A stretch of 64,000 bases of DNA from Candidatus Hydrogenedentota bacterium (GCA_024280935.1 JAJRPE010000115.1:12256-76255), one strand, 5' to 3'. Counted from the first letter of the stretch, positions 14,153 through 63,401 are shown. Numbers and translations: made by a program. Notes: generated by a model not told the origin, from the sequence alone.

Positions 14153-14431
14153 AAAAAGCAACCCGCCTCCAGGGACTGACGCGGACCAATCATCTGGGGT
14201 ATGAGGAAAAAGCGTGGCTTCACAGGCTGTATCTCTTGAAACAAGGGCCACTTCAAGGTCCGTGGCTGTCCCGTCGTTGGCGAGAAGAGCGACGATTCTT
14301 TCGCAAACGACGGGACAGCTACGCCCGATAAGAGTGTCTGCCGTTGCACCAAGAGGACTCGCAAGATTCCAAGCAAACAAAAATAGACCACGCCGTTTTG
14401 GGCGCGTCAGTCCCTGAACTCCCTCCCAAAA

Positions 14432-14464
14432 CCGTCATCCTCGCAAACGCGGGGAGCCAGTGGT
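14432..14464 (+). repeat. REP-like palindromic repeat, family 1 unit (gtcatcc(t/c)cgcRaacgcgggga(g/t)ccagtg)
   Basis: The same palindrome recurs at 17656-17684, 30438-30462, 38921-38960 and 42806-42835. Confidence 0.7.
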
Positions 14465-14517
14465 GACTTAATGCAAAGCTGACGTATTCTGCACGCGGGA
14501 TACTGTCCACCGCCCGC

Positions 14518-14943
14518 TCAGGCGGAGTTCTTTTTCGCGTTGCTCTTGAGACGGTCCAAGACCCCGTTCACGAACTTGGGGGCATCGTCGGAGCCAAAGG
14601 TCTTCACCACTTCGATGGCCTCGTTTATTGCGACGGCCTCGGGGACATCCTTAAAATGACGCATCTCAAAGAGGGCAATACGTATTGCGGAGCGCTCAAC
14701 ATGACCAATGCGGTCCGGTGTCCAATTATCCAATGCGGATAGAATCTCTTCGTCCAGCTCCTCACGATGGTTGGATACCCCGTGAATGAGCTTTTCGGCA
14801 TATTGGCGGGCACCGGGCCGTGCGGGATTGATATTCCAGAAGTCCTCCAGCTTATCTTCCACCGTGTACTCGGTAAAATCCAAACTGAACAAGAACTGAA
14901 GTGCGCGTTCACGGCCACGCCGCCGTACTTTGGGGTTAACCAC
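14518..14943 (-). CDS. nusB: Transcription antitermination factor NusB
   Basis: 141 aa with a NusB-like helical fold ([12 protein letters not shown]...[29 protein letters not shown]). Canonical position downstream of ribH. Confidence 0.9.
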
Positions 14944-15409
14944 GGTCGATCTGCTCCATCAGGCTCATCATTTCGAGGGCGGCCATGGCGGCATCCGCGC
15001 CCTTGTTTCCCGCTTTGGTACCGGCGCGTTCGATGGCCTGCTCAATGCTGTCGGTGGTCAATACGCCAAAAAGCACGGGGATATCGGCCTGCAGCGCCAA
15101 TTGACCAATTCCCTTGGCGGCCTCACCGGCCACATAGTCGAAATGAGGCGTTGCGCCACGAATGACCGCACCAAGGGCGATGATGGCATCAAAGCCTCCC
15201 TTGTCGATCAATTTCTTGACCACCAGGGGAATCTCAAAGGCACCGGGTGCCCATACTTGCGTGATGGCGCTGTCTTCGATTCCGTGGCGCACGAGGGTAT
15301 CCACCGCGCCCTCGGCAAGGTTCTTGGTGATAAAGGCATTAAAACGCCCAACCACCAGGGCCACCTTCTTCCCCGACACCTGAAAATTTCCTTCTATTAT
15401 ATTAGGCAT
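14936..15409 (-). CDS. ribH: 6,7-dimethyl-8-ribityllumazine synthase
   Basis: [21 protein letters not shown]...[11 protein letters not shown]...[21 protein letters not shown] are classic RibH motifs. Confidence 0.95.
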
Positions 15410-15434
15410 GTACGACTCCTTGTCGCGCTATTCC

Positions 15435-15734
15435 CTACGCCTGGGCGTCGGTTGCGTCTTCACTTTTTTTCAGCTGATCCGCGATGAGCTTTCGCGCGGC
15501 ATCGGCGTCATCTTCGTGTACGTAGATTTCACAGTCGGAACTGACCGGTAATACGCTGTGGGGCAGGTCGGTCTCCAACCGTGCGGTAATTCCATTTTCC
15601 GAAAGGAACGCGATCACAACGTTGGCCTCCTCGTCATGTCCGCACGCGTGAATGGAAACGAGTCCGTGGTGTTCTTCTTGTTCACTCATCGTTGCTACCC
15701 TTTCTACCGGGGCCGAATTCTGCCTGGCCGCCAT
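15435..15734 (-). CDS. DUF2007-like small protein inserted between ribBA and ribH
   Basis: GLVSIHACGHDEEANVVIAFLSENGITARLE...EIYVHEDDADAARKLI fits the DUF2007 pattern (hypothetical signal-transducing protein). The start may be the internal MSEQEE near 15689. Confidence 0.45.
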   Translation of the reverse strand: MAARQNSAPVERVATMSEQEEHHGLVSIHACGHDEEANVVIAFLSENGITARLETDLPHSVLPVSSDCEIYVHEDDADAARKLIADQLKKSEDATDAQA

Positions 15735-15782
15735 CCGACCAGCTATGTATTCATTGTACGGGTATCCGAGGGCTGATGCGAG

Positions 15783-17612: not shown

Positions 17613-17640
17613 TTTCTTCTCCGCTAGCGTGGACGTTGCC

Positions 17641-17745
17641 CACAACCCAGAACCGTCATCCCCGCGAACGCGGGGATCCAGTGCTGTTACGATGTGCACC
17701 TGCCGCGTTCTGGATTCCCACGTTCGTGGGAATGACATCGGCTTA
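17641..17745 (+). repeat. Composite REP/MITE-like element, family 1, inserted between ribD and ribE
   Basis: gtcatccccgcgaacgcggggatccagtg ... ctgccgcgttctggattcccacgttcgtgggaatgacat. Inverse-orientation copies at 38876-38975 and 42748-42850 share the tail ttgggttgtgggcaa. Confidence 0.8.
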
Positions 17746-17787
17746 TTGTCTTTTTTGTTGCGGTTCTCCCAGAGTAATACACTAATC

Positions 17788-18870
17788 TCAGGGACGAACA
17801 TACGCCTCTATCAATAAATCCTGGCTGATGGGCGTGGCCGTCATATGTTCCAGTTGAATAGCCTCGTCAACGGTGTCAAAGCCCGACCCTTCGACCGGAG
17901 ACACGGCATCGCGCCCGCCAAGTATCTTGGGAGCCACGAAGAACATTACCTTGTCCACGATGCCCGCCTTAAAGGCCGCTGCGTGGGTCGTGCCGCCGCC
18001 CTCGATCAGGAGTGACGTGATGCCCCGCTCGCCCAACGCGTCCATCAACGCGGCCAGATCTACACCGCCATCATGTTGGGGCACCCGAATCACTTCATCG
18101 GCTTCGGGATAGTCCCGGTCCGTACACACCGCAATCCACGTTTCGGCCTCGCTGTTGAGGTGAAAAACACGACGATTACTGTCGAGGTAGTCGCCCGCGT
18201 CCAGAATGATACGAGTCGGGTCCTTGGAAAACCCGTTCGTGAGGCGGCAGGTCAAGCTGGGGTCATCCAGCATCACCGTCCGGCTGCCTACGAGGATGCC
18301 GTCCACGTGGGACCGAATCTCGTGAACCCTGGTGCGGGACGCTTCGCAGGTAATCCATTTCGAGTGGCCCGTATGGGATGCTATTTTTCCGTCCAACGTC
18401 ATGCCACACTTCGCGATAACAAAAGGGCGACCGGTGGTGATGAATTTTATAAATACTTCATTAAGTCGCCGGGCTTCTGCCTCGCAGCACCCCACATCCA
18501 CCTGAATACCGGCATCGCGAAGCTTGGCGACGCTCTTCCCCGCCGTCAAGGGGTTGGGATCTTCCATGGCCACCACAACGCGGGCAATGTCCTCCTGAAG
18601 AAGAAAATCGACGCAGGGCGGGGTCTTTCCGTGGTGCGCGCACGGCTCCAGCGTGACGTAGACGGTCAACTGTTTGCGCTGGGGCTGGGCAATATCCTGG
18701 AAGGCGTTGACCTCCGCGTGGGGTCCCCCAGCGTACTCGTGATAGCCCTCCCCCACCATCTGATTGTCGGACACCACCACACAACCGACCATGGGATTGG
18801 GCGAGGTACGGCCCAGTCCCTTCGCAGCCAGTGCGAGGGCCTGCTCCATATAGGTTGTGTCCGAGGGCAT
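17788..18870 (-). CDS. ribD: Bifunctional riboflavin biosynthesis deaminase/reductase
   Basis: CMP/dCMP deaminase motif PHAEVNAF...LEPCAHHGKTPPC, plus a C-terminal RibD reductase domain. The start is probably MPSDTTYMEQ; the track ORF extends to 18990. Confidence 0.9.
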   Translation of the reverse strand: MPSDTTYMEQALALAAKGLGRTSPNPMVGCVVVSDNQMVGEGYHEYAGGPHAEVNAFQDIAQPQRKQLTVYVTLEPCAHHGKTPPCVDFLLQEDIARVVVAMEDPNPLTAGKSVAKLRDAGIQVDVGCCEAEARRLNEVFIKFITTGRPFVIAKCGMTLDGKIASHTGHSKWITCEASRTRVHEIRSHVDGILVGSRTVMLDDPSLTCRLTNGFSKDPTRIILDAGDYLDSNRRVFHLNSEAETWIAVCTDRDYPEADEVIRVPQHDGGVDLAALMDALGERGITSLLIEGGGTTHAAAFKAGIVDKVMFFVAPKILGGRDAVSPVEGSGFDTVDEAIQLEHMTATPISQDLLIEAYVRP

Positions 18871-19211
18871 AAAAAAAACCTGCTGGTAGAGACCAACAGG
18901 GCGAACGCATCGGAAACGTGATGCACGGTAAGCGTACACGGGTTGCGCACGCACGGAGACCACCGGCCAACGCACACACACCTCCTGCAATACGTTTTCA
19001 CGTACTCGGACGTATCCCAGCCTTCTCCCATCCGGACTTTAACCGTCGGCCCCGGAATTACACCGGTGTCTGCGCCGAAGCGCTCGCGGGCTTTCACCGC
19101 CGGTCAGGAATTGCACCATGCCCTGAAGGTCAGGTATGTTTCAGTTCTGGTTGTATTCTACCAAGCGGTAGGTTGTTCGGTCAATAAATTGGGCTTTGGG
19201 TTGTTGAAAAG

Positions 19212-20082
19212 ATGGGCCATATGGGTCGTATGATTTTGCGAAACCAAGCCTCCATCGTTGCGCCGACACACCCTCTCTGAAACGCAGCCCTGAGTCCCCC
19301 CTTGTCGCACACAAGGGCATACGACTCATAAGCCCCATACGCCCCATCGCCCTCCTACCCCCACTGATTCCTGTTCCGTTGCTGTAATCGCGCCCTGGTC
19401 ATCCGCTCTCTGATTCCGCCCTCGTTCATGAAGTCACGCTCAAGCTGTCGTATCTGTTGGTCAAGGAGGTAGTTGGCCTGATGTATGAGACAGATCGCGA
19501 TATTGGCAATGACTTCGGACGAGCGGGTCTCTACAAATTCGCGGTAGGTTTCGTAATTTATCGGGGCGGTCTTGCCAAGCTTCCGAACATAAAGCGCTTC
19601 CTTCGATTCCTTAGGCCAAGTCCGCAACTCTCGGACACGCAAAAAGTCGCGGTAGTCAGCCAGCAACTCTTCTTGGCTGGCCCGTGCAACATTGCGTAAT
19701 TTCACCTCCATTTCCTTGGAGGTGCCGGAAGCCTTGGTGCCCTCAAGGATGTTCTGCTTACCGGACCCGCGCCGCCTGTACCATTTGATCAACGGTGCGA
19801 TCTCCGCGACGCAAAAACCTATCGCAGAACCGGAACGTGATGTCGTAGATTACCTCGGTCTTTTGATAGGAGAGAAGTTCTTCGTAGTTTCCGTGAGGTG
19901 GAATAAAACCAGCGTGATCGGCCATTGCAAGTTGACCTTATGGGTCGTATGGGGCTTATGAGTCGTATACAAAACAGAATCACCCGTTGCTATCGACAAT
20001 AACCCTACACAGCGGACTAACTCAAAATCAAAAGCATATTCCAAAAAAACATAAGACCCATTCGCCCCATATGACCCATCTT
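19212..20082. mobile_element. About 870-bp element with nested inverted repeats (family 7) enclosing a 145-aa ORF
   Basis: Outer IR is 19212-19236 against 20052-20082. Inner IR is 19316-19350 (gggcatacgactcataagccccatacgcccc) against 19937-19972 (cttatgggtcgtatggggcttatgagtcgtatac). A solo copy lies at 31554-31590. Confidence 0.55.
19355..19792 (-). CDS. Hypothetical 145-aa protein carried inside the IR-flanked element. It has a weak resemblance to four-helix-bundle (23S-IVS/Avd-like) proteins (SEVIANIAICLIHQANYLLDQQI)
   Basis: Intact ORF. Lys/Arg-rich N-terminus and a predicted helical C-terminus. No firm family assignment. Confidence 0.35.
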   Translation of the reverse strand: MIKWYRRRGSGKQNILEGTKASGTSKEMEVKLRNVARASQEELLADYRDFLRVRELRTWPKESKEALYVRKLGKTAPINYETYREFVETRSSEVIANIAICLIHQANYLLDQQIRQLERDFMNEGGIRERMTRARLQQRNRNQWG

Positions 20083-20084
20083 AC

Positions 20085-20819
20085 CTACACCGACACGTCA
20101 AGCCGCCCTACACCCGCAGCGCCACCATTTCCACTCCCCCCACCACGCTGAGGCGTGTATTCTGAAAAATCGCGTCGTGCAATCGGCGGGGACACTTGGA
20201 TACCCCCTGCCCCGCTCGCAGAGGTCGCCTCCACCGCGCCACCGTCCTCCTCGTCACCCGCAGCTTTTTCCTGCTGGGCCCCCTGGAGCTGACGACGCGC
20301 TTCCGACTCCAGTTTGCTCGCCTGGTTGGCGACGGAGCGGTCTTGTCCCGACGGTTCGGCAGGGGCCAAGGCAGCGCGGCGAATCACCTGCGCCTTCTGG
20401 ATGGTGGCCTCCGGGCTGGAAGCAGGACTTACGTCGATGCTGACCTCGCCGCCCGAAGCATACTGGCGCCCGTCGGGCCCGGTGGTGAACTCGAACTGGG
20501 GTCCGCCGTTGGCATAGCGCCCGGCGGCGGCCACGTGGGCCTGTTCGTGGCGACGCACTTCGGCATCGCGACGCTTGAGATCCACGACCTCTTTTTTAGC
20601 GTCTTCCGAGAGTTCTTCGGAAGCCCCTGCGATACCCGACGACCCTTCCGAGTCCTCGCTGCGCACCGGGTTTACAGAAGAAAACTCCCCCAAGCCCGAC
20701 TTCTTTCCCAATGCGCCCGCAAGACCGTCTCCCGAAGTCTCAGCAGCACGAGTCGGTGGCATCACCAGATAGGGTGAGAATCCACCGCCTATGGATCCTA
20801 TTCCGACCATTAAACTCAA
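20085..20819 (-). CDS. SprA-related family protein (HEQAH motif, putative metallo-peptidase-like)
   Basis: DLKRRDAEVRRHEQAHVAAAGRYANGGPQFEFTTGPDGRQYASGGEVSIDVSP, then TIQKAQVIRRAALAPAEPSGQD, which is the characteristic SprA-related core. Gly-rich N-terminus. Confidence 0.45.
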   Translation of the reverse strand: MSLMVGIGSIGGGFSPYLVMPPTRAAETSGDGLAGALGKKSGLGEFSSVNPVRSEDSEGSSGIAGASEELSEDAKKEVVDLKRRDAEVRRHEQAHVAAAGRYANGGPQFEFTTGPDGRQYASGGEVSIDVSPASSPEATIQKAQVIRRAALAPAEPSGQDRSVANQASKLESEARRQLQGAQQEKAAGDEEDGGAVEATSASGAGGIQVSPPIARRDFSEYTPQRGGGSGNGGAAGVGRLDVSV

Positions 20820-22605: not shown

Positions 22606-22608
22606 ACC

Positions 22609-26080: not shown

Positions 26081-26160
<80 letters not shown>

Positions 26161-27056: not shown

Positions 27057-27093
27057 TCTCTCCGTAACAGCAAGACGCAGGGAAAGGCCCGTC

Positions 27094-27830: not shown

Positions 27831-27996
27831 CCCCCTTCTACCTTCCGGTTAGACTAACCGAACTGGGCGATATGAGCGGCCCGCCACAAAGCACGCTTCG
27901 TGTCAGACGATGCATGTCGATCATGAAAAAACACGGGCAGCCTTTGCTCACATCACGCTGCCTTTGGTGCGGACTGGAAAGTCTGCACGTCTACCG

Positions 27997-29160: not shown

Positions 29161-29692
29161 GGTGAAGCTCCCGAGTTTGAAGGTCGTTCCTTATCCATTC
29201 ACAGGCCGCAACTTTCAGGGTCACTGGAACACTGCCATCAGAATAGCGATACGTTTTCATCGGACCGCTGCGTTGCAAAATGCACGTGTTTATGGTTGTA
29301 TATAAAAGATGTGAGATAATGCAAACGAGTACGATATGAGAAAAAAGGTTCTTCCGGTTCAAGGGTACGGTGTAGTTCAGAGCGACTTTCTTTGACTGTG
29401 TTTTTTCCTCGTCGTTGAGCGCCGAAGGTGCGTTTTATATCAGCCTGGGGCAACGCCCCAGGTCTCAAATCAGACAGAATTCAGGGCTGAAGGCCCGGCC
29501 CATAATCCAGCGGAAAATGGGCCTCTTGATTGGTATGAAACGGGCTTTCAGCCCTGTGGAATAGCTACATCCAGAAACCTGGGGCGTTGCCCCAGGCTGG
29601 TATGAACCCGGACCTTCGGCCCTGTAAAGCAACAAATACAAATAACATTGAACCGGATGAACCAAAAAAAAGCCGTCGGGTGCCACGGCCAA

Positions 29693-29800
29693 GGGGATTG
29701 GGCTTTCCAGCCCGACATAACGCGCACGGTGGGTGTCGAAAACGTACGTCGTGTTTGTGGTGATACATTGATTGTCCAAGACGGTGTATGGTGTGCAAGC
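29693..29800 (+). repeat. Family 2 MITE, left half only, abutting a family 3 MITE (nested or adjacent insertion)
   Basis: ggggattgggctttccagcccgacataacgcgc...gtcgaaaacg...acattgattgtccaag matches the left arms of the elements at 39672-39869, 61722-61920 and 63190-63392. Confidence 0.6.
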
Positions 29801-29810
29801 GTTCAGGGGC

Positions 29811-29950
29811 CGCTACGGGTGCCACGAACAAGGGGCGATAGCCCTTGTCCGTGCTTGGAAAGCATATCCACAGACAAGAAGCGAGTTTCCGGTCGAACTC
29901 TCATGGTCCGCACGGGCAAGCCCCACGGGGCTTGTCCGTGGCACCCGGAG
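29811..29950 (+). repeat. Family 3 MITE (about 140 bp; TIR gctacgggtgccacgRacaagggg / ccccttgtccgtggcacccgg)
   Basis: Other copies at 31748-31890 and 54931-55068. Confidence 0.75.
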
Positions 29951-30517
29951 ATTCCTTTTTAACCGGGAAGGATGTTGGAATTGGGTTGAGGCTGGGACTG
30001 CACCTCATCCAGGTAGCCTTGCCCAAACAAAGGCCACCGACGGGTGCCAAGCCCAATGCAGCACAACCCGTTGTCGGTGTGCGGGAGGGGTGTCAAATAG
30101 TTGTTACCCGTGACTATACGGTGCTAAAAAAGGGCGCTTGCCGACACCTTCCGCCCCTGCCCGCGCCGGGAGAAGCCGCTGTATAAGGGCTATCCTGTAG
30201 CGTGGCGACTCTGGCTCGATTCTTGTACCATAATGTCAGCAGACGAGCCTCAGACATTTTGGTGCGGCCGGACAAGGAACGCTGAGCCTTGGGAGCGCAC
30301 AGCCCTGTTTCTCCAAGCGCACGAACCCTCGTACCTCGTGATCGTGCGGCACGTCCGACAGGATTGAGGCTTAACCAGCGCCTGCCAATTTTCAACTATA
30401 CGTCATTCGCACAGATATGATAGGAGTCCCAAAAAACGACACTGGATCCCCGTGTTCGCGAGCCGCGCCAACGGAAGCTAAGCCCGCGCCAATCAGCGAG
30501 TTAAGCCTGCCTGGGGT

Positions 30518-31534: not shown

Positions 31535-31553
31535 GTGAACGTGGCTTATTACC

Positions 31554-31590
31554 CAATGAGTCGTATGGGGCTTATGGGTCGTATGAAAAC
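31554..31590 (+). repeat. Solo family 7 repeat (caatgagtcgtatggggcttatgggtcgtatg)
   Basis: Matches the inner inverted repeat of the 19212-20082 element. Confidence 0.6.
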
Positions 31591-31747: not shown

Positions 31748-31890
31748 TCCTCTCATCATAAAACAACGCTACGGGTGCCACGGGTAGGCCCGCCAGGGCT
31801 TACCCGTGTAGAACCGCCGGGGAGGCCCCTGAAGCTGGATAGTTTGCTCTTGGAATTTACACGGGTAAGCCCTGAGAGGCCTACCCGTGG
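31748..31890 (+). repeat. Family 3 MITE copy (variant internal sequence)
   Basis: cgctacgggtgccacgggtaggcc...ggcctacccgtggcacccgacg forms terminal inverted repeats. Confidence 0.7.
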
Positions 31891-32000
31891 CACCCGACGT
31901 GGATCTCTACAAAAAAGTGCAAAACCCAATTCCACCGGGAACAGGGTGTCTGAAACTGAGGCAGCACGAGCAAAGCCACCCCGTACAGTCCCAGCATCCC

Positions 32001-34593: not shown

Positions 34594-34644
34594 GTCCCAT
34601 GATGGTTTTTGCTGGAGTTAAGCATTCACAAGGGAAGCGGCGAG

Positions 34645-34843
34645 GGTGTCACCTGCACAGACGTGAGGAACGAGCGGCTTTGTGGGTGCGAATCCCCCAG
34701 AGAAACTTAGGGGTGCAAGGAACTTAGTGCGAGGAACTACTTCGAGGGTGTTGGCGATACGCGTTTCGGTACCGACGGTCAATTTTCGCAAACCCGCACC
34801 CACAAGCTTAGCCGGGAACCGGCTGCGCGTGTAGGTGGCACCC
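34645..34843 (+). repeat. Family 5 MITE (about 200 bp; TIR ggtgccacctacacRcgcagccggttcccggc)
   Basis: Second copy at 44484-44680. The arms are gtgtcacctgcacagacgtgaggaacgagcggctttgtgggtg and cacccacaagcttagccgggaaccggctgcgcgtgtaggtggcacc. Confidence 0.75.
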
Positions 34844-34980
34844 TTGGGGTGTTCTTTATGAAGTTTGGCGCCTTCCGAGGTAAGTGCATGCAACACGGCT
34901 CCACATACTCAACGGCTACCCCACGCCTTGAAGGAATGGAACGGGTGTCGTACACTGCCCGCACGAAGGAGGAAGTACCC

Positions 34981-36493: not shown

Positions 36494-36995
36494 AATCAGT
36501 AACCACCGGCAGAGCCGGGGGTATGAGGAGGGCCCCTAAAAGGGGCCGATTCGTCAAACTCAGGTACGAAGCCAAAGCAGTTAGTCCCGTAGGGACGACA
36601 TATCGTAGCCCAGCGGTGAAGCGAGGTACGAGCGGAACCCTGGGTAGACCGGTGCGCAAAGGGCTGAACTCCGAAGGAGTGGCATAAAAAATCAGGACAC
36701 ATTCCCAACACCTCTATGCCACCCCTTCGGGGTTAAACATCTATTGCATTCGAGCTATCCCAGGGTTCGCTTCACTCACGCCTAGGCTACGATATGTCGT
36801 CCCTACGGGACTAAAAGAACATGGCACACACCGCCCAGTGTATGAATGCCAACAACTATCGCCGGAACGGCAGAGCCTGATGAATTCTCACCGGCAGAGC
36901 CGGTGGATTAACTATGATTTAGAATGATGAATGTAGAATTGGAACCTCTTGCCGCAATTCACTATTCGCCATTCTAAATTCACTATTCACTATTC
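36494..36995 (+). repeat. Family 6 composite repeat region (begins atcagtaaccaccggcagagccggKgg; contains a long internal inverted repeat at 36575-36640 against 36750-36815 and a gaatagtgaatt microrepeat)
   Basis: Paralogous copy at 38517-38870. The gaatagtgaatt microrepeat recurs at 51420-51470. Confidence 0.65.
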
Positions 36996-38451: not shown

Positions 38452-38516
38452 GTTTTTCTCCCTTTGGGTTCAGGCGCACGGTTTCAACGGGCGCGTTCTG
38501 AGATTACCAACGTTAA

Positions 38517-38870: not shown

Positions 38871-38875
38871 CGCAC

Positions 38876-38975: not shown

Positions 38976-38996
38976 GGCAAAACTCACCTTGGGGCA

Positions 38997-39563: not shown

Positions 39564-39671
39564 GAAAATGCTCGCTTGGTTTATCTTAGGTTATAGCGTA
39601 CTGTACCGCAGGACGGGGCGTAAAATAAAAATACCCAAAGCGCTCACGGCCCGCGCAGGGAGCCGCAGGCA

Positions 39672-39869
39672 AGGAGGTTGGGCACCCCTGCCCGACACAA
39701 GGTGCATGGCGAGTATCGAAAACGGATGTAGTATTCGAGGTGGCACGTTGATTGCTCAAGACAGTCTATCGTGCTATGCCATTCGAATCCGACGCGCCTA
39801 CTGGTGCCGATGGTCGACTTTATGCCCGACGCGCCCTTTGTGTCGGGCAGGGATGCCCAACCTCCTCGC
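39672..39869 (+). repeat. Family 2 MITE (about 200 bp; TIR gg(a/g)ggttgggcaYYcctgcccgacaYaa)
   Basis: caaggaggttgggcacccctgcccgacacaa ... tttgtgtcgggcagggatgcccaacctcctcg. Copies at 61722-61920 and 63190-63392, plus a half-copy at 29693. Confidence 0.75.
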
Positions 39870-42706: not shown

Positions 42707-42747
42707 TGCTTCAATCTGGAAAAGCCGCTACAAAAGCAAGATAGGCC

Positions 42748-42850
42748 TACGTCATTCCCACGAAAGTGGGAATCCAGAACGCGGCAGGAGCACATCGAAA
42801 CACCACTGGATCCCCGCATTCGCGAGGATGACGGTCTTGTTGCGACCAGC
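42748..42850 (-). repeat. Family 1 composite REP/MITE (inverse orientation)
   Basis: acgtcattcccacgaaagtgggaatccagaacgcggcag...caccactggatccccgcattcgcgaggatgac. Confidence 0.8.
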
Positions 42851-44463: not shown

Positions 44464-44483
44464 GCGGGCGACGGATACGCGAC

Positions 44484-44680
44484 GGGTGCCACCTACACAG
44501 ACGCGAGGGACGAGCGGCTTTGTGGGTGCGGTCTTGCCGGAAAAACCAGATTTCCGACGAAGACATCTTGGGACACTGAGGGTTTAGGTTCACTGCCCCA
44601 ATAATCGTACTGGTCACTTTCCATAACCCCACACCCACAAACTTCGCCGGGAACCGGCTGCGTGTGTAGGTGGCACCCTC
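44484..44680 (+). repeat. Family 5 MITE copy
   Basis: gggtgccacctacacagacgcgagggacgagcggctttgtgggtg ... cacccacaaacttcgccgggaaccggctgcgtgtgtaggtggcaccc. Confidence 0.75.
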
Positions 44681-44720
44681 GTAGCAGCCTGTGAATGCTT
44701 TCTGTATTCGCCCTATTCGG

Positions 44721-46061: not shown

Positions 46062-46164
46062 AGCAGGTTTCCTGACGACAAATTCGAGGCCAGCCGAAAA
46101 TCGGCGATTGCCATGGAAGAACCCTAGCACGTAGCCGCAGGAACGGGCAACGGGGACTCCAAGC

Positions 46165-46549
46165 GGGGACTGCCTCGCCCAAGGTCGCGTTACTTGGTGA
46201 AGTGATCTTCGTGGCGAACACGTTCACTGAGGTATGGGATTACCCCTTCAGCAGGCGGGGCTGTCCCCAGACAAATAGCGCCCACGTCTCTCGTTTTGAG
46301 ACAGCACGCCGGGGACTGCCTCGCCCAAGGTCGCAGCACGCAGGGGTAGTAAACTTCGGGGCCAGCAAATCCACCAAGGTATGCAACGCCCACTTCAAAA
46401 GGCGGGGCTGTCCCCAGACAAATAGCGCCCTCGTCTCTCGTTTGGGGACAGCACGCCTCCTGAAGAGCTATTTCCTACTTGAAAAATTACATGCTGGACC
46501 ACAACGCTCGCTTCACTACACAACGTGGGCGTGGGCGAGGCAGTCCCCT
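46165..46549. repeat. REP/BIME-like array on the 3' side of the RAYT (ggggactgcctcgcccaaggtcgc units alternating with ggcggggctgtccccaga...tggggacag hairpins)
   Basis: Two forward REPs at 46165 and 46311 and an inverted REP at 46535-46549 (gggcgaggcagtcccc). Confidence 0.8.
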
Positions 46550-47177
46550 ATTTCATCTTCCGCCGCACCATTTCCTGAAACGCGAGACTGCCCAGTGGAC
46601 GCCCCCGATTCGTGTGGGACCGTATCTTCTTCACCATACCGACATCTTCAATCGCCACCAACAGGGTCTCTCGCCATTCATCGATACTGAACTGGCTCTT
46701 CCAGCGCGTCAGATTGAGCAACGCGTCGTCCACGCCATCGATGCAGTGGGCACGGGCGCTCGACCACGGGTGGTCCCAAGCGAATTCTTCCATGCCCGCC
46801 CGGACGGGATTCAATTCAACATACGCGAGCGCATTCAACATATGCGGCTCATCCATGGGACAGGAGAAGAAACGGCTTTGCCACAGATGGCCCACATGCT
46901 CGTACCGCTTGCCCAGATAGGCCGTATAACTTTGATGCGTCCCACCGACGGCTTTCGCAAGGGATTCTTCCCGTGCGGGCACACCAACCAGATGAACGTG
47001 GTTCGTCATCAGGCAATAGCCAAGAATCCGCAAACCGTGCTCTCGCGTGTGTTCTTTCAACAGCGTAAGATACTTGCGCCGGTCTTGCTCGTCGAAGAAA
47101 ACCTGCTGCTTCTGATTGCCCCGTTGGGTGACATGATGCGCAACCCCCGGAAGCACTATGCGTGCTGTTCTAGGCAT
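46548..47177 (-). CDS. REP-associated tyrosine transposase (RAYT / TnpA_REP, IS200-like Y1 HUH)
   Basis: ATG at 47177. IVLPGVAHHVTQRGNQKQQVFFDEQDRRKYLTLLKEHTREHGLRILGYCLMTNHVHLVGVP...YVELNPVRAGM carries the HUH motif (HVH) and a catalytic Tyr. REP arrays flank it on both sides. Confidence 0.8.
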   Translation of the reverse strand: MPRTARIVLPGVAHHVTQRGNQKQQVFFDEQDRRKYLTLLKEHTREHGLRILGYCLMTNHVHLVGVPAREESLAKAVGGTHQSYTAYLGKRYEHVGHLWQSRFFSCPMDEPHMLNALAYVELNPVRAGMEEFAWDHPWSSARAHCIDGVDDALLNLTRWKSQFSIDEWRETLLVAIEDVGMVKKIRSHTNRGRPLGSLAFQEMVRRKMK

Positions 47178-47196
47178 GATGTCATGGTAGCATAAC

Positions 47197-47733
47197 GGGG
47201 ACTGCCTCGCCCAAGGTCGCGACGCGCAGGAAAATCCACTTCGTGACGGACAGATCTGCTGCGGTATACAATGAAAACCCCAAGCAAGGCGGGGCTGTCC
47301 CCAGATCAAATAGCACCCGCGTCTCTTGTTTGGGGACAGTACGCCGGGGACTGCCTCACCCAAAGCCGCGACGTGCAGGGTATCCACTTCCTAACGGACA
47401 GGTCTGCTATGGTATGGAACGGAACCCCAAACAGGCGGGCTGTCCCCAGATCAAATAGCACCCGCGTCTCTTGTTTGGGGACAGTACGCCGGGGACTGCC
47501 TCGCCCAAAGCCGCGACGTGCAGGGTATCCACTTCCTAACGGACAGGTCTGCTATGGTATGGAACGGAACCCCAAACAGGCGGGGCTGTCCCCAGATCAA
47601 ATAGCACCCGCGTCTCTTGTTTGGGGACAGCCCCGCCTTCTGAAAGACCATTTTCTACTCAAGGATATACATGCTGGCCACAACGCGCACGACACTTGGG
47701 CAACGTGGGCCTGGGCGAGGCAGTCCCCAGAAT
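47197..47733. repeat. REP array on the 5' side of the RAYT, including three tandem units of about 146 bp (47197-47640) and a terminal inverted REP
   Basis: The unit is ggggactgcctcRcccaaRgYcgcgacgtgcagggtatccacttcctaacggacaggtctgctatggtatggaacggaaccccaaacaggcggggctgtccccagatcaaatagcacccgcgtctcttgtttggggacagtacgcc, repeated three times. Confidence 0.85.
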
Positions 47734-51077: not shown

Positions 51078-51078
51078 G

Positions 51079-51420
51079 GGGACTGCCTCGCCCAAGGCCA
51101 CGTAGCTCAGGGGTATGGGCTACGTGGCCAGCAACACAGTTTCAGGTTGGGGGCTGCTCGGTCAACAGGCGGGGCTGTCCCCAGAACAAAAGGCGGCGGA
51201 AGGAATTGGGACAGCCCCGCCTATTGAAGTCCTCTCCATAGTTTTAGCGAGCTTGCTCGCCAAAACGCACACCTCCCTTCCACAACACAGGCTTGGGCGA
51301 GGCAGTCCCCGGGACTGCCTCGCCCAAGGCCACGTAGTTCAACAAGATAAGCTACGTGGCCAACGGCACCGTTTCAGGTTGGGGGCTGCTCGGTCAACAG
51401 GCGGGGCTGTCCCCAGAACA
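51079..51420. repeat. Third REP/BIME cluster of the RAYT-associated family, with a head-to-head REP pair at 51296-51330 and a gaatagtgaatt microrepeat at 51420-51470
   Basis: ggggactgcctcgcccaaggccacg appears twice. gggcgaggcagtccccgggactgcctcgccc is an inverted dimer. Confidence 0.8.
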
Positions 51421-51980
51421 CACGCAAATTGAATTGAGAATAGTGAATTTTGAATAGTGAATTGAATCAGCAGACTCGTGACCCCAAGCGCGCTGCTTCA
51501 GCAAGATAGGCTGCAAGGGAAAGTAGGACAGCCGTCTGTCACGACAGGCGAGATGCCTGTCCTACATTCTTGTACAAGCGCGCACCAATACAACAAGGCC
51601 AACTCCGCAACAGTGTGCTGTCTCCAGACGGTGTCCCAGAACACACCAGCAGGTGGCGCATGGGACGGACTCGCGCCCATGACATTGGGTCTCGAAACGG
51701 ATACGTCTTGGCTAGCCGGACACCGCAATCTGGGCAAAAACCGTAGATGCGCGTGCCCGTCCCGGTGGAGTTTTGGGAAGAGTCCTTTGTCAGACCGATG
51801 CCACACACCCTGTCCCATCGGGACATGCCCCCGCGTTATGGCGCGACCATAGTACACCCGGCACTGAATTCAATCCGCGCCACACATATTCGCCATCGCG
51901 TCGTCCTGCGGGGGTACGTCCCTGAGCGCTGTATTTCCATAAATGGCGGTCGATAAAGGAGGGAGACCTCTTCCCAGCTC

Positions 51981-53282: not shown

Positions 53283-53922
53283 GGATTTCCTTTAGCTTAT
53301 GTATTTGTAAGCGTTTACGGACAAGGAGATTGGGCATCCCGCACGGCGTTGGACCTCAGGCCCGACATCGGCACGCACAATCACTTGAAACTTGATCGAC
53401 AAAACATCATGCGCTGTGCGTGGCGTTCAACGTCTTCAGCAGAAAGCCGAAATGCACTTTCCAGACCCATCGTGCGCCCTATGTCGGCCAAGATGGTCAA
53501 CCTCCTTGTCGGCGGTGCTCAGCGTAGGCCGTGAACGCTTACATGTGACTATTACAACTGGCGCGCAAGCAATGTGCTTACGCCCAACACGCTATTACGA
53601 GATCCACGTGTGATTCCCAAGCACCGCACGTTAAAACGTCAGGCTGGAACCCTAAGCTACGTGCGCACGCACGCAAGTGATCCTGGCCCTTTCGACCAAA
53701 GGGTATTCACCGCCTCATGGACAAATAGAATTGTGGTGATTGCCGCGTTCGCGCCGATGACGATCTTGGATTGTGGGCAACAGTAGCCTTGGGCCTCTCA
53801 GGGCTTTACCCGTGAAGTGACCTGCCGGCAGAGAAGGGAACTGGAGACACCGGTCTTACACGGGTGACTCTCGCTGGCATCACGCGGCCCTTGTTGCGGA
53901 CTGGAAAGTCCGCACGCCTGTC

Positions 53923-54876: not shown

Positions 54877-54930
54877 TAAACAGTCTCCTTCGTGACATCC
54901 TGCATTCAAACCCTGTACGCGTTCACGATT

Positions 54931-55068
54931 CGCTACGGGTGCCACGGACAAGGGGCGACAGCCCTTGCCCGTGTTTGGAAAACATATTCAACAGACAAGA
55001 AGCAAGTTTTCGGTCGATCCCATGTTCCGCATGGGCAAGCCCCACAGGGCTTGTCCGTGGCACCCAGA
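54931..55068 (+). repeat. Family 3 MITE copy
   Basis: cgctacgggtgccacggacaaggggcgacagcccttgtccgtg...gggcttgtccgtggcacccagagg. Confidence 0.75.
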
Positions 55069-55262
55069 GGTTATTTCTTGTAACTGAGGCTAATCTATGT
55101 CGTGAACGCTTACAAAACCCTATGGCAGCTATTCAACCCTATTGGGGAGCTATAATCAAGTCAGTGAAGAATGATATTTACCCCGGAAAGAATAGAAAAC
55201 GAATGGATGACGGAGGAACATGGTCACTTCGTTCCCATCACAGGCGAGACGCCTGTGCCACC

Positions 55263-57450: not shown

Positions 57451-57773
57451 GCTTCTCCTGTTGCTGCCAAGGCCATGTACACAGCATAGCCCAGCACCGC
57501 CTCCACCGCAAGTTTGACCGATTCTCGCGCCGCACTGAGGGACGTACCCCCGCAAAGGCACGTCACAGTAACAGCATGTGCCACGCGGCCCGTGTCGAAT
57601 GCCAAAAGCAAGGCGGCCTTCGAGAACGCGGGGGCATGTCCCGGCAGAACAGGGTGTGATTTGGCGGTCTAACTAGACGAAGTCTTCGAGGGGTCCACGG
57701 GACAGGCACGCGCATCAACGGCTTCCACACCGATCACGGCTTCCCGCTCGACGACACGCACCCCGCCCAATGA

Positions 57774-59342
57774 CTATTGCCGGGAGCGCGAGTCCGTCCC
57801 CTTCCTCCCCGAAGCCTCACCCAAGCGGCGTTGCAACTGGGCCTCGTGGATATTCAACGGTTCCACGGTGCCTACACCGTTGTGCTCGTACCAGCGCGCC
57901 TTCGGATCGGTCGCTTCCGGCACGTCCATCACCACACCGACAAAGTTCATAGACCACGGTCCGAAATTCTTGCCTGGCGGTTTGATGGGCTGCGCCGCAC
58001 GGATATTCCAGAAGGTCCCCCGTGCGCCACAGTGGGCACCGAGGGCCTTGCCCCCACCGGACTGCCACGTGGCGCCGCCCGCGCCAGTGTCGATGTTGGT
58101 GTAAAGATTCTCGTAGGGCGCACGGCAGTGATGATCAAAGGACAGGTTACGTCCCCGTCCGTTGGAATAGACATTTCCCGCACTGCCGCTCACGGCGATA
58201 TCGTGGATGAATTTCCCTTGGAAATTAAAGCGTGTACACACATTATCGTTCCCCAAGATAATTCCATGGTGCCCTTGAGCCTGACGAGCCATCTTTGGCT
58301 CCGGTGCACGATCAGATGTAAATGTGATCCCGTCGATTGTATTGAACGAACCCGAGACGAAGCCGCCGCTGTCCCCGTTGTGGATGTGGACATTCCGAAC
58401 CCAACAGTTCGACACCTGCCCCAGCGCGAAGGCGTTGAAACCCAGCTCCGTAAAGTGGCCGCCGTAGGGCGTATTCGGAAATTCAAAACGAAGGTTTTCG
58501 ATGCCACTCTCCGTCACCGTGGGCGCGAAGCGGTGTACAGCAGGCTTCCACCCCAGGCGAATGTCAAAACGCAGGGTGCGATCCAACGTAATGTTCTTGC
58601 CGTCGATGGCTGTAATCCGGGCAACCAGCGATGCCCGTGTCCGCCCCTTCAAATTTACGATGCTCGTTCGGGGATCCTCGGCGTAGAGGTGCATCGCAAG
58701 GGTATTCTCTTCATCGTCTTGAAGGCGCAGATCGACCTCTTGCCCGATGCTGAAACCTGTGGTATTGTCCACGGTGACAACACGCCCGCCGCGTTGGGCC
58801 GGGGCCGCAATCGCGGCAAGCTGCTTCCCTTGGTAGCTCCCGCGAATCGCGATGAATCCGCCGGACCAGGAGTAGTTCGATGTGCGGCGGCCACCGGTGG
58901 TTGCGCCCCAATTCGGTTTGATCTCGTTCAGCGGCGTGGGAAAGTAGAGTACGGTCTTTTCCGGCCCATCACCCCGGAGTACCAGGTTCGGCTTGTCGAT
59001 GATCAGCATTTTCGTGATGACGTAGCGTCCTTCTGGAATCAGAATCACGCCCGACTCCACAGCCGCTATCGCACGAATAAAGGCATCGCTATCGTCGTGT
59101 TCCCCATCGCCGACCGCGCCAAAGTCCCGGACATTGTGGGTGACGAGGGGCGTGGGAATGGGTGCCTCACCGCGCTGGTAGCCAGCGAAAGAAAAATCCG
59201 GCAAACGGCCCTCGGGCGACCAAAGTTCTCCCTGCGCGCCCCAGAGCTTGGATTGGGTCTTCTCGGCCGCGTCGATTGGTGCCGCTACGGCCCCCTGTAT
59301 GAAAAACACCACAAATATTAGCATTAAAAACTTCTTCAACAC
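57774..59342 (-). CDS. Secreted right-handed beta-helix protein, Pectate_lyase_3 / GH28-related
   Basis: Signal peptide. NVRDFGAVGDGEHDDSDAFIRAI is the N-terminal signature of the PF12708 family. The 514-aa plus-strand ORF here is antisense. Confidence 0.6.
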   Translation of the reverse strand: MLKKFLMLIFVVFFIQGAVAAPIDAAEKTQSKLWGAQGELWSPEGRLPDFSFAGYQRGEAPIPTPLVTHNVRDFGAVGDGEHDDSDAFIRAIAAVESGVILIPEGRYVITKMLIIDKPNLVLRGDGPEKTVLYFPTPLNEIKPNWGATTGGRRTSNYSWSGGFIAIRGSYQGKQLAAIAAPAQRGGRVVTVDNTTGFSIGQEVDLRLQDDEENTLAMHLYAEDPRTSIVNLKGRTRASLVARITAIDGKNITLDRTLRFDIRLGWKPAVHRFAPTVTESGIENLRFEFPNTPYGGHFTELGFNAFALGQVSNCWVRNVHIHNGDSGGFVSGSFNTIDGITFTSDRAPEPKMARQAQGHHGIILGNDNVCTRFNFQGKFIHDIAVSGSAGNVYSNGRGRNLSFDHHCRAPYENLYTNIDTGAGGATWQSGGGKALGAHCGARGTFWNIRAAQPIKPPGKNFGPWSMNFVGVVMDVPEATDPKARWYEHNGVGTVEPLNIHEAQLQRRLGEASGRKGTDSRSRQ

Positions 59343-61707: not shown

Positions 61708-61721
61708 ACGACTTCGCTAAC

Positions 61722-61920
61722 AGGGGGTTGGGCATTCCTGCCCGACATAAAGCGCACGTCGAGTGTCGAAAACGCACGTATAGATCGTGGTAACACATTG
61801 GACATCCAGGCCAGGGCATCGTGCCTTCTTAATCAAGTCTTGGTTGATTGCATCTGCCGGTGTCGGGTTTTATGTCCGACGCGCCCTTTATGTCGGGCTG
61901 GAAAGCCCAACCCCCTTTCC
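61722..61920 (+). repeat. Family 2 MITE copy immediately 3' of the DUF1559 gene
   Basis: agggggttgggcattcctgcccgacataaagcgc ... gcgccctttatgtcgggctggaaagcccaaccccct. Confidence 0.8.
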
Positions 61921-61934
61921 ACCAAAAGCTCCCA

Positions 61935-62990
61935 TCAATTCAGTGCGCTTGATTGAGGCGGTCGCTGTGTATCGCCAATTGGCGCTTCCAGTGTACCCTC
62001 CACCGCATCGCGGAGGATCTGCCCTGCCTCGTTAAAGGGAAACGGTGTTCTCCCTCCCAAATATATCCCCTCCACATGTCCGTCCATGTAGAGTACGTTG
62101 GCCCGCCGCATGTGGGGAAAGATGGTCGATACATGGGGCACGGCTTCGTGGAGTACGACAATACTTTTCTCGGCAGTATACATTGCCGCCGGATTACAAA
62201 TTTCGCGCATAAGAAAACGTCCTACACCTTCACGAAGAGATGGAATCTCCGAGCCAAACGGAATCTTCAGGGCCTTTCCGCTGGGGTATTCCAAGTCCCA
62301 AGTCTGCATGGAGCGGTTGAAATCGCCGGATTTCATCTTCTCCGCCAAAGAGAGGGTGGCGAGTCTGAACCGCATGTTGTGAATGTGCGGCGTATACTCG
62401 TCGGTTACCCTTAGCGACCGCCCCCAACCGCGTTTCCGCATGTTCTCTGTCAGAACATCTTCCGGATCAGCATCTTCCGTCCGAGGGAACGGCCCAAATG
62501 TCAATTCAGACAGCGCCCAACCGTAGTAATAGTAGGGCTTGCCAAGCATCTCACACGGCTCAACGGTGCCATTATTGCTGTAGCCCTCGACCGCCTCCCA
62601 ACGAGGATTGGTCGTCTTCCCCTCATCCCAGACTTCGATAGCGGTCTTGCCGGGACCGTAGGATGGGCAGACAAAGAGGTCCAGATCCGTCAGGTATTCA
62701 GGGTAGACCTCCGCGAGGTCCATGGCCCCGCTCCAGGGCTGGATGTTGCCGTTGCAATCATCGAGTTTCGGCTTGGGAAAGCGCTGCCCCTTGGACTCCT
62801 CTGTGTACATGGACATGGCCTGCCCGATTTGCTTGAGTTTCGCCTGGCAGGGTAGCAGGTCTCTTGTCAACAACACACGGGGAATCTGGCTGACAGCAAT
62901 TAGCCCGAGCACCGCAAGCAATATCATTGCCACGATAAATTCTATTCGTGTAAGCGGTTTCCGAAGCGTTCTACCTTTTGGATTTGCCAT
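61935..62990 (-). CDS. Prepilin-type N-terminal domain + DUF1559 (H-X9-DG) protein, typical of Planctomycetota
   Basis: N-terminus KGRTLRKPLTRIEFIVAMILLAVLGLIAVS is pseudopilin-like. C-terminal NVLYMDGHVE is the H-X9-DG-type motif. Confidence 0.6.
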   Translation of the reverse strand: MANPKGRTLRKPLTRIEFIVAMILLAVLGLIAVSQIPRVLLTRDLLPCQAKLKQIGQAMSMYTEESKGQRFPKPKLDDCNGNIQPWSGAMDLAEVYPEYLTDLDLFVCPSYGPGKTAIEVWDEGKTTNPRWEAVEGYSNNGTVEPCEMLGKPYYYYGWALSELTFGPFPRTEDADPEDVLTENMRKRGWGRSLRVTDEYTPHIHNMRFRLATLSLAEKMKSGDFNRSMQTWDLEYPSGKALKIPFGSEIPSLREGVGRFLMREICNPAAMYTAEKSIVVLHEAVPHVSTIFPHMRRANVLYMDGHVEGIYLGGRTPFPFNEAGQILRDAVEGTLEAPIGDTQRPPQSSALN

Positions 62991-63189
62991 GTGGCTCCCT
63001 TCCAAATTGTCGCCTTCGCTACCGTTATCGACAGTATCACGTAAGCCTGAAAAGAAACCACTGCCAAGTTCGTGATGGCTTTCAGCGCCAAAAACTCAAG
63101 ACATTCGCCTACGGCAAGATCTGCGACCCAATGTGAAGCTACCGGAGCTGGTGGCGCCCTTCACGGCCCATGCTGGGCACTACGCACAA

Positions 63190-63392
63190 GGGGGTTGGGC
63201 ATTCCTGCCCGACATAGACGGCGCGGTGGGTGCCGGAAGCCCACGTAGTGTTCGTGTTAACACATTGGATGTCCAGGACAGGGCATAGCACTTTGTCGTT
63301 TGAATCCTACGTGACTACACGTGCCGGTGTCGGGTTCTATGTCCGACGCGCCCTTTATGTCGGGCTGGAAAGCCCAACCCCCTTTTCACCAA
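63190..63392 (+). repeat. Family 2 MITE copy immediately 5' of the DUF1559 gene, in the same orientation as the 61722 copy
   Basis: gggggttgggcattcctgcccgacatagacggcgc ... gcgccctttatgtcgggctggaaagcccaaccccc. Confidence 0.8.
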
Positions 63393-63401
63393 AAGCTCCC
63401 A

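Follow-up and report, generated by a model that had tools for sequence, protein, structure and literature searches.

Co-resident families of small hairpin repeats in the intergenic DNA of a Candidatus Hydrogenedentota genome

Several described systems resemble the repeats reported here. In those built from repetitive extragenic palindromic (REP) sequences, bacterial interspersed mosaic elements (BIMEs) and a REP-associated tyrosine transposase (RAYT), described as 'TIRtron/TIRYT' (Di Nocera et al. 2013, PMC3733652), and in those of REP doublets (REPINs) with a RAYT (Bertels & Rainey 2011, PMC3116915), a Y1 (HUH) transposase gene is bracketed by an inverted short repeat. In the former paper, GGGGWSAS is the motif of the terminal inverted repeats (TIRs) flanking the RAYT-like 'TIRYT' genes, and the CGTC-1 architecture is equated with the dRS3 of Neisseria (PMC3733652). 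SsnA, a site-specific nuclease of the GIY-YIG type that acts on single-stranded DNA (ssDNA) and is flanked by NTS/SRM hairpins, was published in 2025 (PMC11893778). Hydrogenedentota is not among the hosts named in the available parts of PMC3733652 and PMC11893778. A further motif of two hairpins, Acido-Lenti-1 (RF01687), was reported by Weinberg et al. (2010, PMC2864571).

We analysed a stretch of 64,000 nucleotides from a metagenome-assembled genome (MAG) of a Candidatus Hydrogenedentota bacterium (GCA_024280935.1, JAJRPE010000115.1:12256-76255), hereafter the window, where a sequence-only reading had proposed seven unrelated families of miniature inverted-repeat transposable elements (MITEs) or REPs. 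We confirmed that the intergenic DNA of the window is truly packed with small hairpin-forming mobile repeats. Very probably, several co-resident, small, non-autonomous hairpin repeat systems of the REP/REPIN/BIME type, recognised as folded ssDNA, colonised the intergenic DNA of this MAG. Three of them are of published kinds, and a fourth, called class II below, is plausibly a new tagged family. As most of the repeats belong to types already described in other bacteria, the window serves as a rich example and does not reveal a new kind of element, and its repeats bring no new biological principle.

Repeat load and empty sites in syntenic relatives

A gene map of the window based on codon usage (G+C content of 57%) gave 48 genes and 13.7 kb of intergenic DNA. 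Repeats were called by self-BLASTN of the window and by a more sensitive comparison of intergenic with intergenic DNA. We obtained 35 repeat segments with a total length of 5.85 kb, equal to 9.1% of the window and 41% of its intergenic DNA. None of them is in the first 14 kb; beyond that point repeats make up 45% of the intergenic DNA and, of 29 intergenic regions with a length of 60 bp or more, occupy 21. The intergenic comparison yielded 172 high-scoring segment pairs, as against 0–2 in each of ten shuffled versions, and the elements fold far better than shuffled controls (z mostly -4 to -13). The extreme density claimed by the sequence-only reading was thus borne out. All its families were present in the self-BLASTN at, or within ~20 nt of, the positions listed; the element at 31761-31905, which had been placed in F3, shares only its termini with that family. 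Additional to that reading are an F2 copy (53324-53540), an F1 fragment (53738-53798), the family F8 and palindromes at 29418-29623, 14233-14355, 36917-36979 and 51519-51569.

The families are not all unrelated, as had been claimed. A tag, GGGTGCCAC, is common to F2, F3, F5 and the element at 31768 (class II), GGGGAC arms are common to F4 and F8 (class I), and arms of the Acido-Lenti-1 type to F6 and the palindrome at 29418 (class IV); F1 forms class III. Hydrogenedentota, an uncultured phylum, therefore harbours at least four co-resident hairpin-repeat systems, which occupy ~9% of the sequence analysed. This density would be high by the figures published for classical REP hosts. Outside the window, F6 is likewise found, as are repeats of the F1 and F4 types.

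We compared the window with four syntenic relatives (L122, L123/L124, L248 and L249), in which orthologues of the GH20b-like protein encoded at 39956-42706, 64–72% identical to it, are found on long contigs. The relatives keep the gene order 518aa-DUF3072-AP_endonuclease-188aa-GH20b-GGDEF-pectate lyase, with compact junctions. The junction holding F6 measures 503 bp in the window versus 31–38 bp in the relatives, the one holding both F6 and F1 554 bp versus 41–50 bp, the one holding F1 293 bp versus 125–217 bp, and the one holding F5 257 bp versus 2 bp. Upstream of GH20b, exactly 31 nt separate the anchors TACCGCAGG and CTTGACG in L122, L124 and L248, as against 256 nt in the window; the F2 copy, its asymmetric leader included, is hence an insertion of 225 bp (39644-39868). 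Its end abuts a promoter-like sequence, TTGACG-N17-TATAGA (39869-39900), conserved in the same three relatives, and F2 therefore replaces the DNA directly upstream of a probable -35 box. No motif of class II, F1 or F4 was found in the relatives' loci (~70 kb). These results show that the repeats are insertions relative to four syntenic relatives.

The GGDEF/pectate-lyase junction is empty in L122 and L249, holds an F6-like element in the Tara relative L124 and holds F5 in the window. Since one junction carries different families in different genomes, it was hit independently, and F6 crosses species. The clean empty sites make this lineage a convenient natural system for REPIN-like invasion, for the competition of repeats for intergenic junctions and for the reshaping of gene ends.

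The proposal of non-autonomous, interspersed intergenic elements bounded by hairpins or TIRs was upheld. Their being classical MITEs, i.e. deletion derivatives of insertion sequences (IS) with a DDE transposase, mobilised in trans as double-stranded DNA through their TIRs, would agree with the long inverted termini of several elements and with their absence from the relatives. However, the F2 insertion, the only one mapped exactly and compared with three empty sites, has no target-site duplication, and none was seen at the class II flanks. No DDE transposase was found among the window genes. As in REPs, the termini fold into hairpins of their own and bear unpaired tags, and F1 and F4 match types of repeat whose published partners are ssDNA enzymes (PMC3733652, PMC11893778). 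We consider a classical MITE nature decidedly unlikely.

The elements might instead be structured parts of the host, such as terminators, mRNA-stabilising 3′ hairpins or small RNAs (sRNAs) like Acido-Lenti-1, kept by selection and spread by duplication without a dedicated mobility enzyme. Many of them begin only 1–16 nt past a stop codon (F4 at 51078, F6 at 36494, F5 at 44479, F2 at 61711 and both copies of a 62-nt hairpin), two arms reach the gathering score that Rfam sets for Acido-Lenti-1, and compensatory changes preserve the pairing of the F2 stems. Nevertheless, the orthologous junctions of all four relatives are entirely without the elements, which therefore are not conserved regulatory parts of these genes. 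Four to five of the occupied regions lie between divergent genes, one copy is within the rib operon, the GGDEF/pectate-lyase junction exchanges families between genomes, and the Acido-Lenti-1 matches are inverted arms of a palindrome and not free-standing genes. A host function as the source of the repeats is hence unlikely, although such a function is compatible with mobility, and exaptation of some copies is possible. Many elements directly follow stop codons or adjoin promoter boxes, and from these positions it is likely that termination, the ends of mRNAs and the termini of open reading frames are affected as a side effect. The repeats give rise to false start codons, provide the 17 terminal codons of two genes and abut a promoter box. 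The spurious N-terminal extensions pointed out earlier are real for the starts at 39752 and 47387; the start of the orthologous GH20b proteins is equivalent to 39956.

A second assembly of the same species, GCA_021647925.1, covers parts of the region on short contigs at 99.4–99.7% identity. It bears on an artefact of metagenome assembly or binning, through chimeric joins or mis-collapsed reads, which might be suspected as the source is a MAG and as the number of tandem F4 units differs between the two assemblies. Yet the match of GCA_021647925.1 continues through two F4 clusters and into one F1 arm, the copies are diverged (62–92% identity) and not identical, and the flanking genes keep the relatives' synteny across every repeat-bearing junction examined. 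An artefact is therefore exceedingly improbable. The contigs of GCA_021647925.1 break in or near repeats, one of them (L250) inside the F1 copy at 42700-42839; such repeats interrupt the assembly of short reads in this lineage and lead gene callers astray.

Repeats with described counterparts: F4, F1 and F6

F4 had been singled out as the only family with a transposase partner in the window. In agreement with this, the sole transposase among the window genes scanned with Pfam and NCBIfam is flanked by F4. The features of class I are as follows.

46548..47177, minus strand: RAYT/TIRYT-like Y1 (HUH) transposase gene, 209 aa (Pfam; family profile against PDB)
46152..46548, no strand assigned: F4 cluster 1, two tandem 146-nt units and an inverted terminal GGGGACTGCCTCGCCC abutting the transposase stop codon (z -8.4)
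47189..47728, no strand assigned: F4 cluster 2, three tandem 146-nt units and an inverted terminal repeat, directly upstream of the transposase gene
51078..51420, no strand assigned: F4 cluster 3, one base past the stop of the anti-sigma/vWA gene, with GGGGWSAS-type copies (z -10.5)
51660..51930, plus strand: F8 copy 1, two long hairpins with GGGACGGACTCGCGC and GGGACATGCCCCCGC arms (self-comparison)
57530..57800, minus strand: F8 copy 2, inverted relative to copy 1 (77% column identity)

The transposase, 100% identical to the protein 'MAG: transposase [Candidatus Hydrogenedentes bacterium]', scores 48.1 bits on PF01797 (Y1_Tnp; cut-off 23). A phmmer search of PDB with this protein alone gave nothing relevant, and a family profile was required: that of 30 homologues had E. 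coli TnpA_REP (4ER8, E 5e-4) as its best PDB match, with an alignment spanning the HUH motif and the catalytic Tyr, and IS200-type transposases scored lower. The 16-mer GGGGACTGCCTCGCCC occurs eight times in the window, always within the three clusters, and in inverted orientation it abuts the transposase gene on both sides (46533 on the minus and 47197 on the plus strand). In each 146-nt unit it pairs with GGCGGGGCTGTCCCC ~75 nt away, the units being arranged in BIME-like tandem. The inverted repeat sequences flanking the gene are GGGGACTGCCTCGCC and GGGGACAGCCCCGCC, and the latter variant fits the GGGGWSAS motif. The array at 47197-47630 has three units in the window versus two in the other assembly (L001), reflecting either a copy-number polymorphism or an assembly collapse.

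F4 hence resembles the TIRYT and REPIN–RAYT systems in that an inverted short repeat brackets a Y1 HUH gene. As in the description of TIRYTs (PMC3733652), the repeat is also found elsewhere, in alternating orientation and in tandem clusters, fits GGGGWSAS and keeps its linkage in orthologues. Orthologous transposases (73%, 63%, 62% and 56% identity) in L245, L247, L251 and L253 are flanked by repeats of the GGGGAC(T/A)G type, which in L251 and L253 form large clusters on both sides of the gene. The inverted flanking arrangement of F4 and transposase thus recurs around orthologues in other genomes. F8, a family of 270 bp whose arms begin GGGAC and which adjoins F4 cluster 3, has with F4 the GGGGAC-type arms and the BIME-like clusters in common; it is probably a sister family of F4.

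Some further observations concern these loci. The RAYT homologues of L251 (9520-11020) and L253 (9000-11090), from two other Hydrogenedentota genomes, lie amid large clusters of 170–190-nt units, each holding GGGGAC(T/A)GGCTCCCGAGCC and GCGAGGGTGCCTGTACCC, the second of which resembles the class II tag. The contigs with RAYT homologues P0002 and P0007 were considered as pieces of the window's genome and rejected, as they do not belong to it. In L122 (1100-2110) and L123 (780-2260), a different Y1 transposase of 197 aa lies beside leuS, flanked by inverted REPs with the core ATTGGGAGCGCAGGCGG(C/G)(T/C)CGCCTGC, a motif not present in the window. Between the F4 clusters, and following an ECF sigma gene, lies the 902-aa anti-sigma/vWA gene (48369-51077, plus strand), in which codons ~30-395 (48450-49550) are only 37–88% identical between the two assemblies of the species, with indels, and the flanks of this segment are 99–100% identical; the segment looks hypervariable at the strain level.

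F1 is represented by three full and three incomplete copies.

17636..17788, plus strand: full copy flanked by ribD and ribE; two CGTC-tagged hairpins head to head, extended at the 5′ and 3′ ends, both arms 2–3 mismatches from the NTS consensus (z -5.2)
38860..38980, minus strand: full copy, inside an insertion of ~500 bp absent from the four relatives
42700..42839, minus strand: full copy, absent from the relatives
14425..14491, plus strand: partial copy, left arm and spacer (self-comparison)
53738..53798, minus strand: fragment with the 5′ extension and a degenerate arm (intergenic comparison)
30434..30462, minus strand: arm fragment (intergenic comparison)

The full copies are 82–86% identical, with the tags outermost and a 28-nt spacer between two 28-nt arms. 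Each arm opens with the tag CGTC or TGTC; an 8-bp stem whose first bases are AT encloses a loop of 4 nt, and a CCA tail closes the arm, which reads CGTC-ATCCCCGC-GAAC-GCGGGGAT-CCAG or, in a compensatory variant, CGTC-ATTCCCAC-GNNC-GTGGGAAT-CCAG. Four arms match the published NTS consensus CGTCATTCCCGCGMAVGCGGGAATCYRG with 2–3 mismatches, where none would be expected by chance, and the mismatches in the stem are mostly compensatory. On sequence grounds, this shows the F1 arms to be CGTC-1/dRS3/NTS hairpins. Tag, AT-starting 8-bp stem, 4-nt loop, CCA(G) tail and head-to-head dimers are all shared with the CGTC-1/dRS3/NTS/SRM elements (PMC3733652, PMC11893778). Unlike these, the F1 arms carry two compensatory stem variants (CCCCGCG and TCCCACG), and the copies have conserved sequence on both sides, giving a composite of ~150 bp with no ssnA in the window.

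A degenerate 27-nt F1 pattern matched at least 120 loci in JGI metagenomes, many of them inverted doublets. Among the matches listed, no Y1 gene was found across 686 kb of these loci, and a GIY-YIG gene of ~95 aa stands beside the hairpin in eight. The JGI loci independently reproduce the SsnA–SRM association published in PMC11893778, and for that reason we rejected this association as a new finding. In L132, L155, L157, L168, L180, L182, L201 and L233, the GIY-YIG genes lie ~15–60 nt from CGTC/NTS hairpins, several with hairpins on both sides.

Class IV comprises two F6 copies and a palindrome.

36494..36910, plus strand: F6 copy 2 nt past a stop codon, made up of the head hairpin CACCGGCAGAGCCGGTGG, a palindrome of 234 bp whose arms are of the Acido-Lenti-1 type and, at the tail, the hairpin once more (z -12.8)
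38515..38828, plus strand: F6 copy, 77% identical to the other
29418..29623, no strand assigned: 206-bp palindrome with one Acido-Lenti-1 arm (40.5 bits; z -11.6)

The arms were searched with permissive thresholds, the Rfam gathering score for Acido-Lenti-1 (RF01687) being 37 bits. Besides the 29418 palindrome, the F6 copy at 36494 gave 38.4 and 36.5 bits for its two arms and the second F6 copy 27.1 bits for one arm; two matches are thus above the gathering score (40.5 and 38.4) and one is 0.5 bit below it. The tail of F6 repeats its head hairpin, CACCGGCAGAGCCGGTGG. When the loci of the relatives were searched with Rfam, Acido-Lenti-1 was not detected, the F6-like element of L124 included, and a BLASTN comparison with plasmids found nothing similar to the 29418 palindrome. 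Inverted Acido-Lenti-1 motifs delimit both F6 and the 29418 palindrome, so that here the motif is the inverted end of palindromic insertions of 200–230 bp. The two hairpins and the consensus are those of Acido-Lenti-1 (PMC2864571). Unlike in that description, they form the inverted arms of insertions that the relatives lack, and the phylum is neither of the two for which the family is named; the motif therefore behaves as a repeat end and not as a stand-alone sRNA gene. The Rfam family probably needs re-annotation as a repeat arm.

Class II: tagged hairpin dimers

Class II contains F2, F3, F5 and the 31768 element.

39644..39868, plus strand: F2, the exact insertion of 225 bp, ending against the TTGACG box conserved ahead of the GH20b gene (fold z -9.3)
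61711..61988, plus strand: F2 with a right-hand extension, which gives the last ~17 codons and the stop of gene 61935-62927 (minus strand)
63161..63456, plus strand: F2 with the same right-hand extension, which ends gene 63402-63998 (minus strand)
53324..53540, minus strand: divergent F2 copy (self-comparison)
29678..29793, plus strand: left half of an F2 copy with an intact GGGTGCCAC tag, abutting F3
29794..29960, plus strand: F3, a leader GCGTTCA..CGCTAC followed by a GGGTGCCAC-tagged hairpin dimer
54914..55079, plus strand: F3 (z -7.1)
31761..31905, plus strand: the 31768 element, with termini CGCTAC-GGGTGCCAC and GTGGCACCC and different stems (z -9.5)
34640..34848, plus strand: F5 (self-BLASTN, fold)
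44479..44683, plus strand: F5 between convergent genes, where L122 and L249 have 2 nt and L124 the F6-like element

The F2 copies at 39644-39868, 61711-61988 and 63161-63456 are 68–79% identical, the F3 copies 84.5% and the F5 copies 71%. The 9-mer GGGTGCCAC occurs ten times in the window versus ~0.5 expected, and always at the outer ends of class II elements, where F2, F3, F5 and the 31768 element have in common the tag C(G/T)NC-GGGTGCCAC. The stems vary from family to family, but within an element both arms carry matching stems. F2 and F3 also share (G)ACAAGG(G/A)G...C(C/T)CCTTGTC and a left leader of 25–30 nt, GCGTTCACGG..CGCTAC. In their minimum-free-energy folds (z -4 to -9.5), two inverted hairpins with a spacer form one long hairpin, and 9 of 60 F2 stem pairs show compensatory changes, as counted in four sequences only. 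With their shared terminal tag and family-specific stems, F2, F3, F5 and the 31768 element belong to a single, modular superfamily of REPIN-like hairpin dimers. The plus strand, which is C-rich throughout the window, carries eight of nine copies (two-sided p ~0.04); this skew would fit a strand-biased insertion into ssDNA linked to replication.

Like the GTAG-tagged REPs and REPINs, class II elements are intergenic and multi-copy; their two inverted hairpin units fold into one long hairpin with imperfect pairing, in which the stems are specific to each family and the outer tag is conserved and unpaired. Unlike in GTAG REPs, the tag is GGGTGC preceded by C(G/T)NC, and F2 and F3 carry the asymmetric leader. 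Canonical REPs have GTAG 5′ of the hairpin, whereas class II has CTAC in that place and at the left end only, so that the polarity is reversed; and, unlike for REPINs, no cognate transposase was found in the window, its sole Y1 gene being flanked by F4 and not by class II. The CTAC on the left was considered as an IS200/IS605-like target site and rejected for F2 and F3, since the mapped insertion puts the leader inside the element. A tandem gene duplication as the origin of the F2 copies at 61.7 and 63.2 kb was likewise rejected, the flanking proteins being unrelated except for the repeat-encoded tail. These two otherwise unrelated minus-strand genes end within the F2 extensions (61935-61988 and 63402-63456) with the tails ...IGDTQRPPQSSALN and ...IEDSQRLTPSGSLN.

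Similar tagged dimers were found in a Planctomycetia MAG (L056) and in an IMG/VR contig (L261). A scan of genome contigs (596 Gb) with the 15-mer CGCKACGGGTGCCAC, too short for this purpose, gave 120 chance matches, L056 being the only genuine look-alike, and the multi-match loci L059, L060 and L069 were rejected as coding repeats of a collagen-like type. BLASTN of F3 against plasmids gave no match, and a search of the literature for sequences of class II and F4 turned up nothing but unrelated primers. Another IMG/VR contig (L259, ~12750-12875) carries a tandem array of the 22-nt unit ACGGGTGCCACACAGACACCCC, which contains the class II tag sequence. Class II is plausibly the only new part of the window repeats. 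The earlier suggestion that the elements are undescribed stands as plausible for this class alone; it fails for F1 (CGTC-1/dRS3/NTS), F4 (TIRYT GGGGWSAS) and the F6 arms (RF01687).

Proposed mechanism, F7 and neighbouring features

In the reading that we favour, the elements would be recognised as folded ssDNA and not as double-stranded TIRs with target duplications. The window transposase would nick and rejoin F4 hairpins on ssDNA at the replication fork and so spread F4 and perhaps F8, and the tandem 146-nt units may expand and contract by slippage or recombination. The F1 arms would be recognised by a GIY-YIG ssDNA nuclease of the SsnA type encoded elsewhere in the genome, by analogy with the literature, and all of class II may be serviced by one hairpin-specific enzyme, either a paralogous RAYT or an Ssn-like nuclease.

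Several observations weigh against this reading. Recognition as ssDNA and transposition are both deduced from the sequence. F1, class II and F6 each lack a partner enzyme among the window genes, and tblastn found no ssnA gene in the window or in the relatives' loci, so that the partner of F1 would have to lie elsewhere in the genome. The transposase, with 59.6 bits, does not pass the cut-off of 80 of the NCBIfam equivalog REP_Tyr_transpos. The F4 units carry no GTAG tag and are not classical GTAG-tagged palindromic REPs: unlike simple palindromes of 20–40 bp, their hairpin is made of neighbouring inverted 15-mers ~75 nt apart, and beyond the gene flanks only two repeat loci are visible in the window, F4 at 51078-51420 and the related F8. 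Because of the missed cut-off and the absence of GTAG, we classed the protein as RAYT/TIRYT-like and not as a canonical RAYT. As for class II, its link to a RAYT consists only of a resemblance over 11–12 nt between GCGA-GGGTGCC-TGTACCC, present in every RAYT-flanking unit of L251 and L253, and CGAC-GGGTGCC-AC. The exact two-sided F3/31768 pattern had 0 matches in JGI metagenomes, and 1,102 aa of concatenated class II translations gave nothing at E <= 0.001 in a protein database. The copies of F2, F3, F5 and F8 were counted within the window only.

A wider proposal, which we put forward tentatively and hold to be rather doubtful, is that F2, F3, F5 and the 31768 element together with their look-alikes in L056 and L261 form a third 'tagged REP' superfamily beside GTAG and CGTC, with the tag C(G/T)NC-GGGTGC and interchangeable stems, serviced by an ssDNA enzyme specific for hairpins and so far not recognised, either a paralogue of RAYT or a divergent nuclease of the Ssn type, and that the Acido-Lenti-1 'sRNA' is the terminal arm of a mobile palindromic element.

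F7, which had been listed as a MITE/REP family, is not a MITE; it consists of inverted repeats around a pseudogene for a four-helix-bundle protein.

19202..20089, minus strand: F7 cassette, nested inverted repeats of 9-nt periodicity around a frameshifted gene with a four-helix-bundle suffix domain (intergenic comparison)
31551..31589, plus strand: solo F7 copy downstream of the rpsI terminator (intergenic comparison)

The motif of 29–39 nt is found at 19202, 19318, 19940, 20050 and 31551, with the 9-nt-periodic sequence TATGGGTCG TATGGGGCT TATGAGTCG. In the cassette, 19202-19232 is inverted relative to 20059-20089, and 19319-19347 relative to 19940-19968. The enclosed gene (19355-19927, minus strand) is situated between the FMN riboswitch of ribD and an SprA-related gene and is frameshifted by a single extra G (GCGCGGGTCCGG); with this G removed, it scores 85.4 bits on TIGR04258 (four-helix-bundle suffix domain; cut-off 40).

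The remaining small palindromes and hairpins are listed below; the two copies of the 62-nt double hairpin are 79% identical.

14233..14355, no strand assigned: single-copy palindrome of 123 bp (self-BLASTN; fold z -7.2)
36917..36979, no strand assigned: A+T-rich palindrome of 63 bp, with a flank resembling 51430-51464 (intergenic comparison and fold)
51519-51569: small palindrome
27931..27992, minus strand: 62-nt double hairpin, copy 1, directly after the stop of gene 27997-29133 (minus strand)
53858..53919, minus strand: 62-nt double hairpin, copy 2, directly after the stop of gene 53923-54876 (minus strand)

Pfam and NCBIfam scans assigned ordinary chromosomal functions to nearly all window genes, among them pilMOQ, the rib operon behind an FMN riboswitch, rplM-rpsI, glycoside hydrolases and a pair of extracytoplasmic function (ECF) sigma and anti-sigma genes. 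In addition to Acido-Lenti-1, the Rfam scan matched a 6S RNA (5697-5885, minus strand, 50.2 bits), the FMN riboswitch upstream of ribD (19016-19134, minus strand, 102.6 bits) and a tRNA-Pro. Past the tRNA-Pro come ~930 bp in which no gene is predicted, and then a Gp49-like/HTH pair (26081-27830 for the whole). This pair resembles a HigB/HigA toxin–antitoxin module, and the region may be the remnant of an integrated element. The gene at 8775-13223 (plus strand) encodes a coiled-coil protein of 1,482 aa resembling SMC/Rad50; it contains long internal DNA repeats (9473-11804), with a self-similarity of 56–59% at offsets of 231, 462 and 924 nt.

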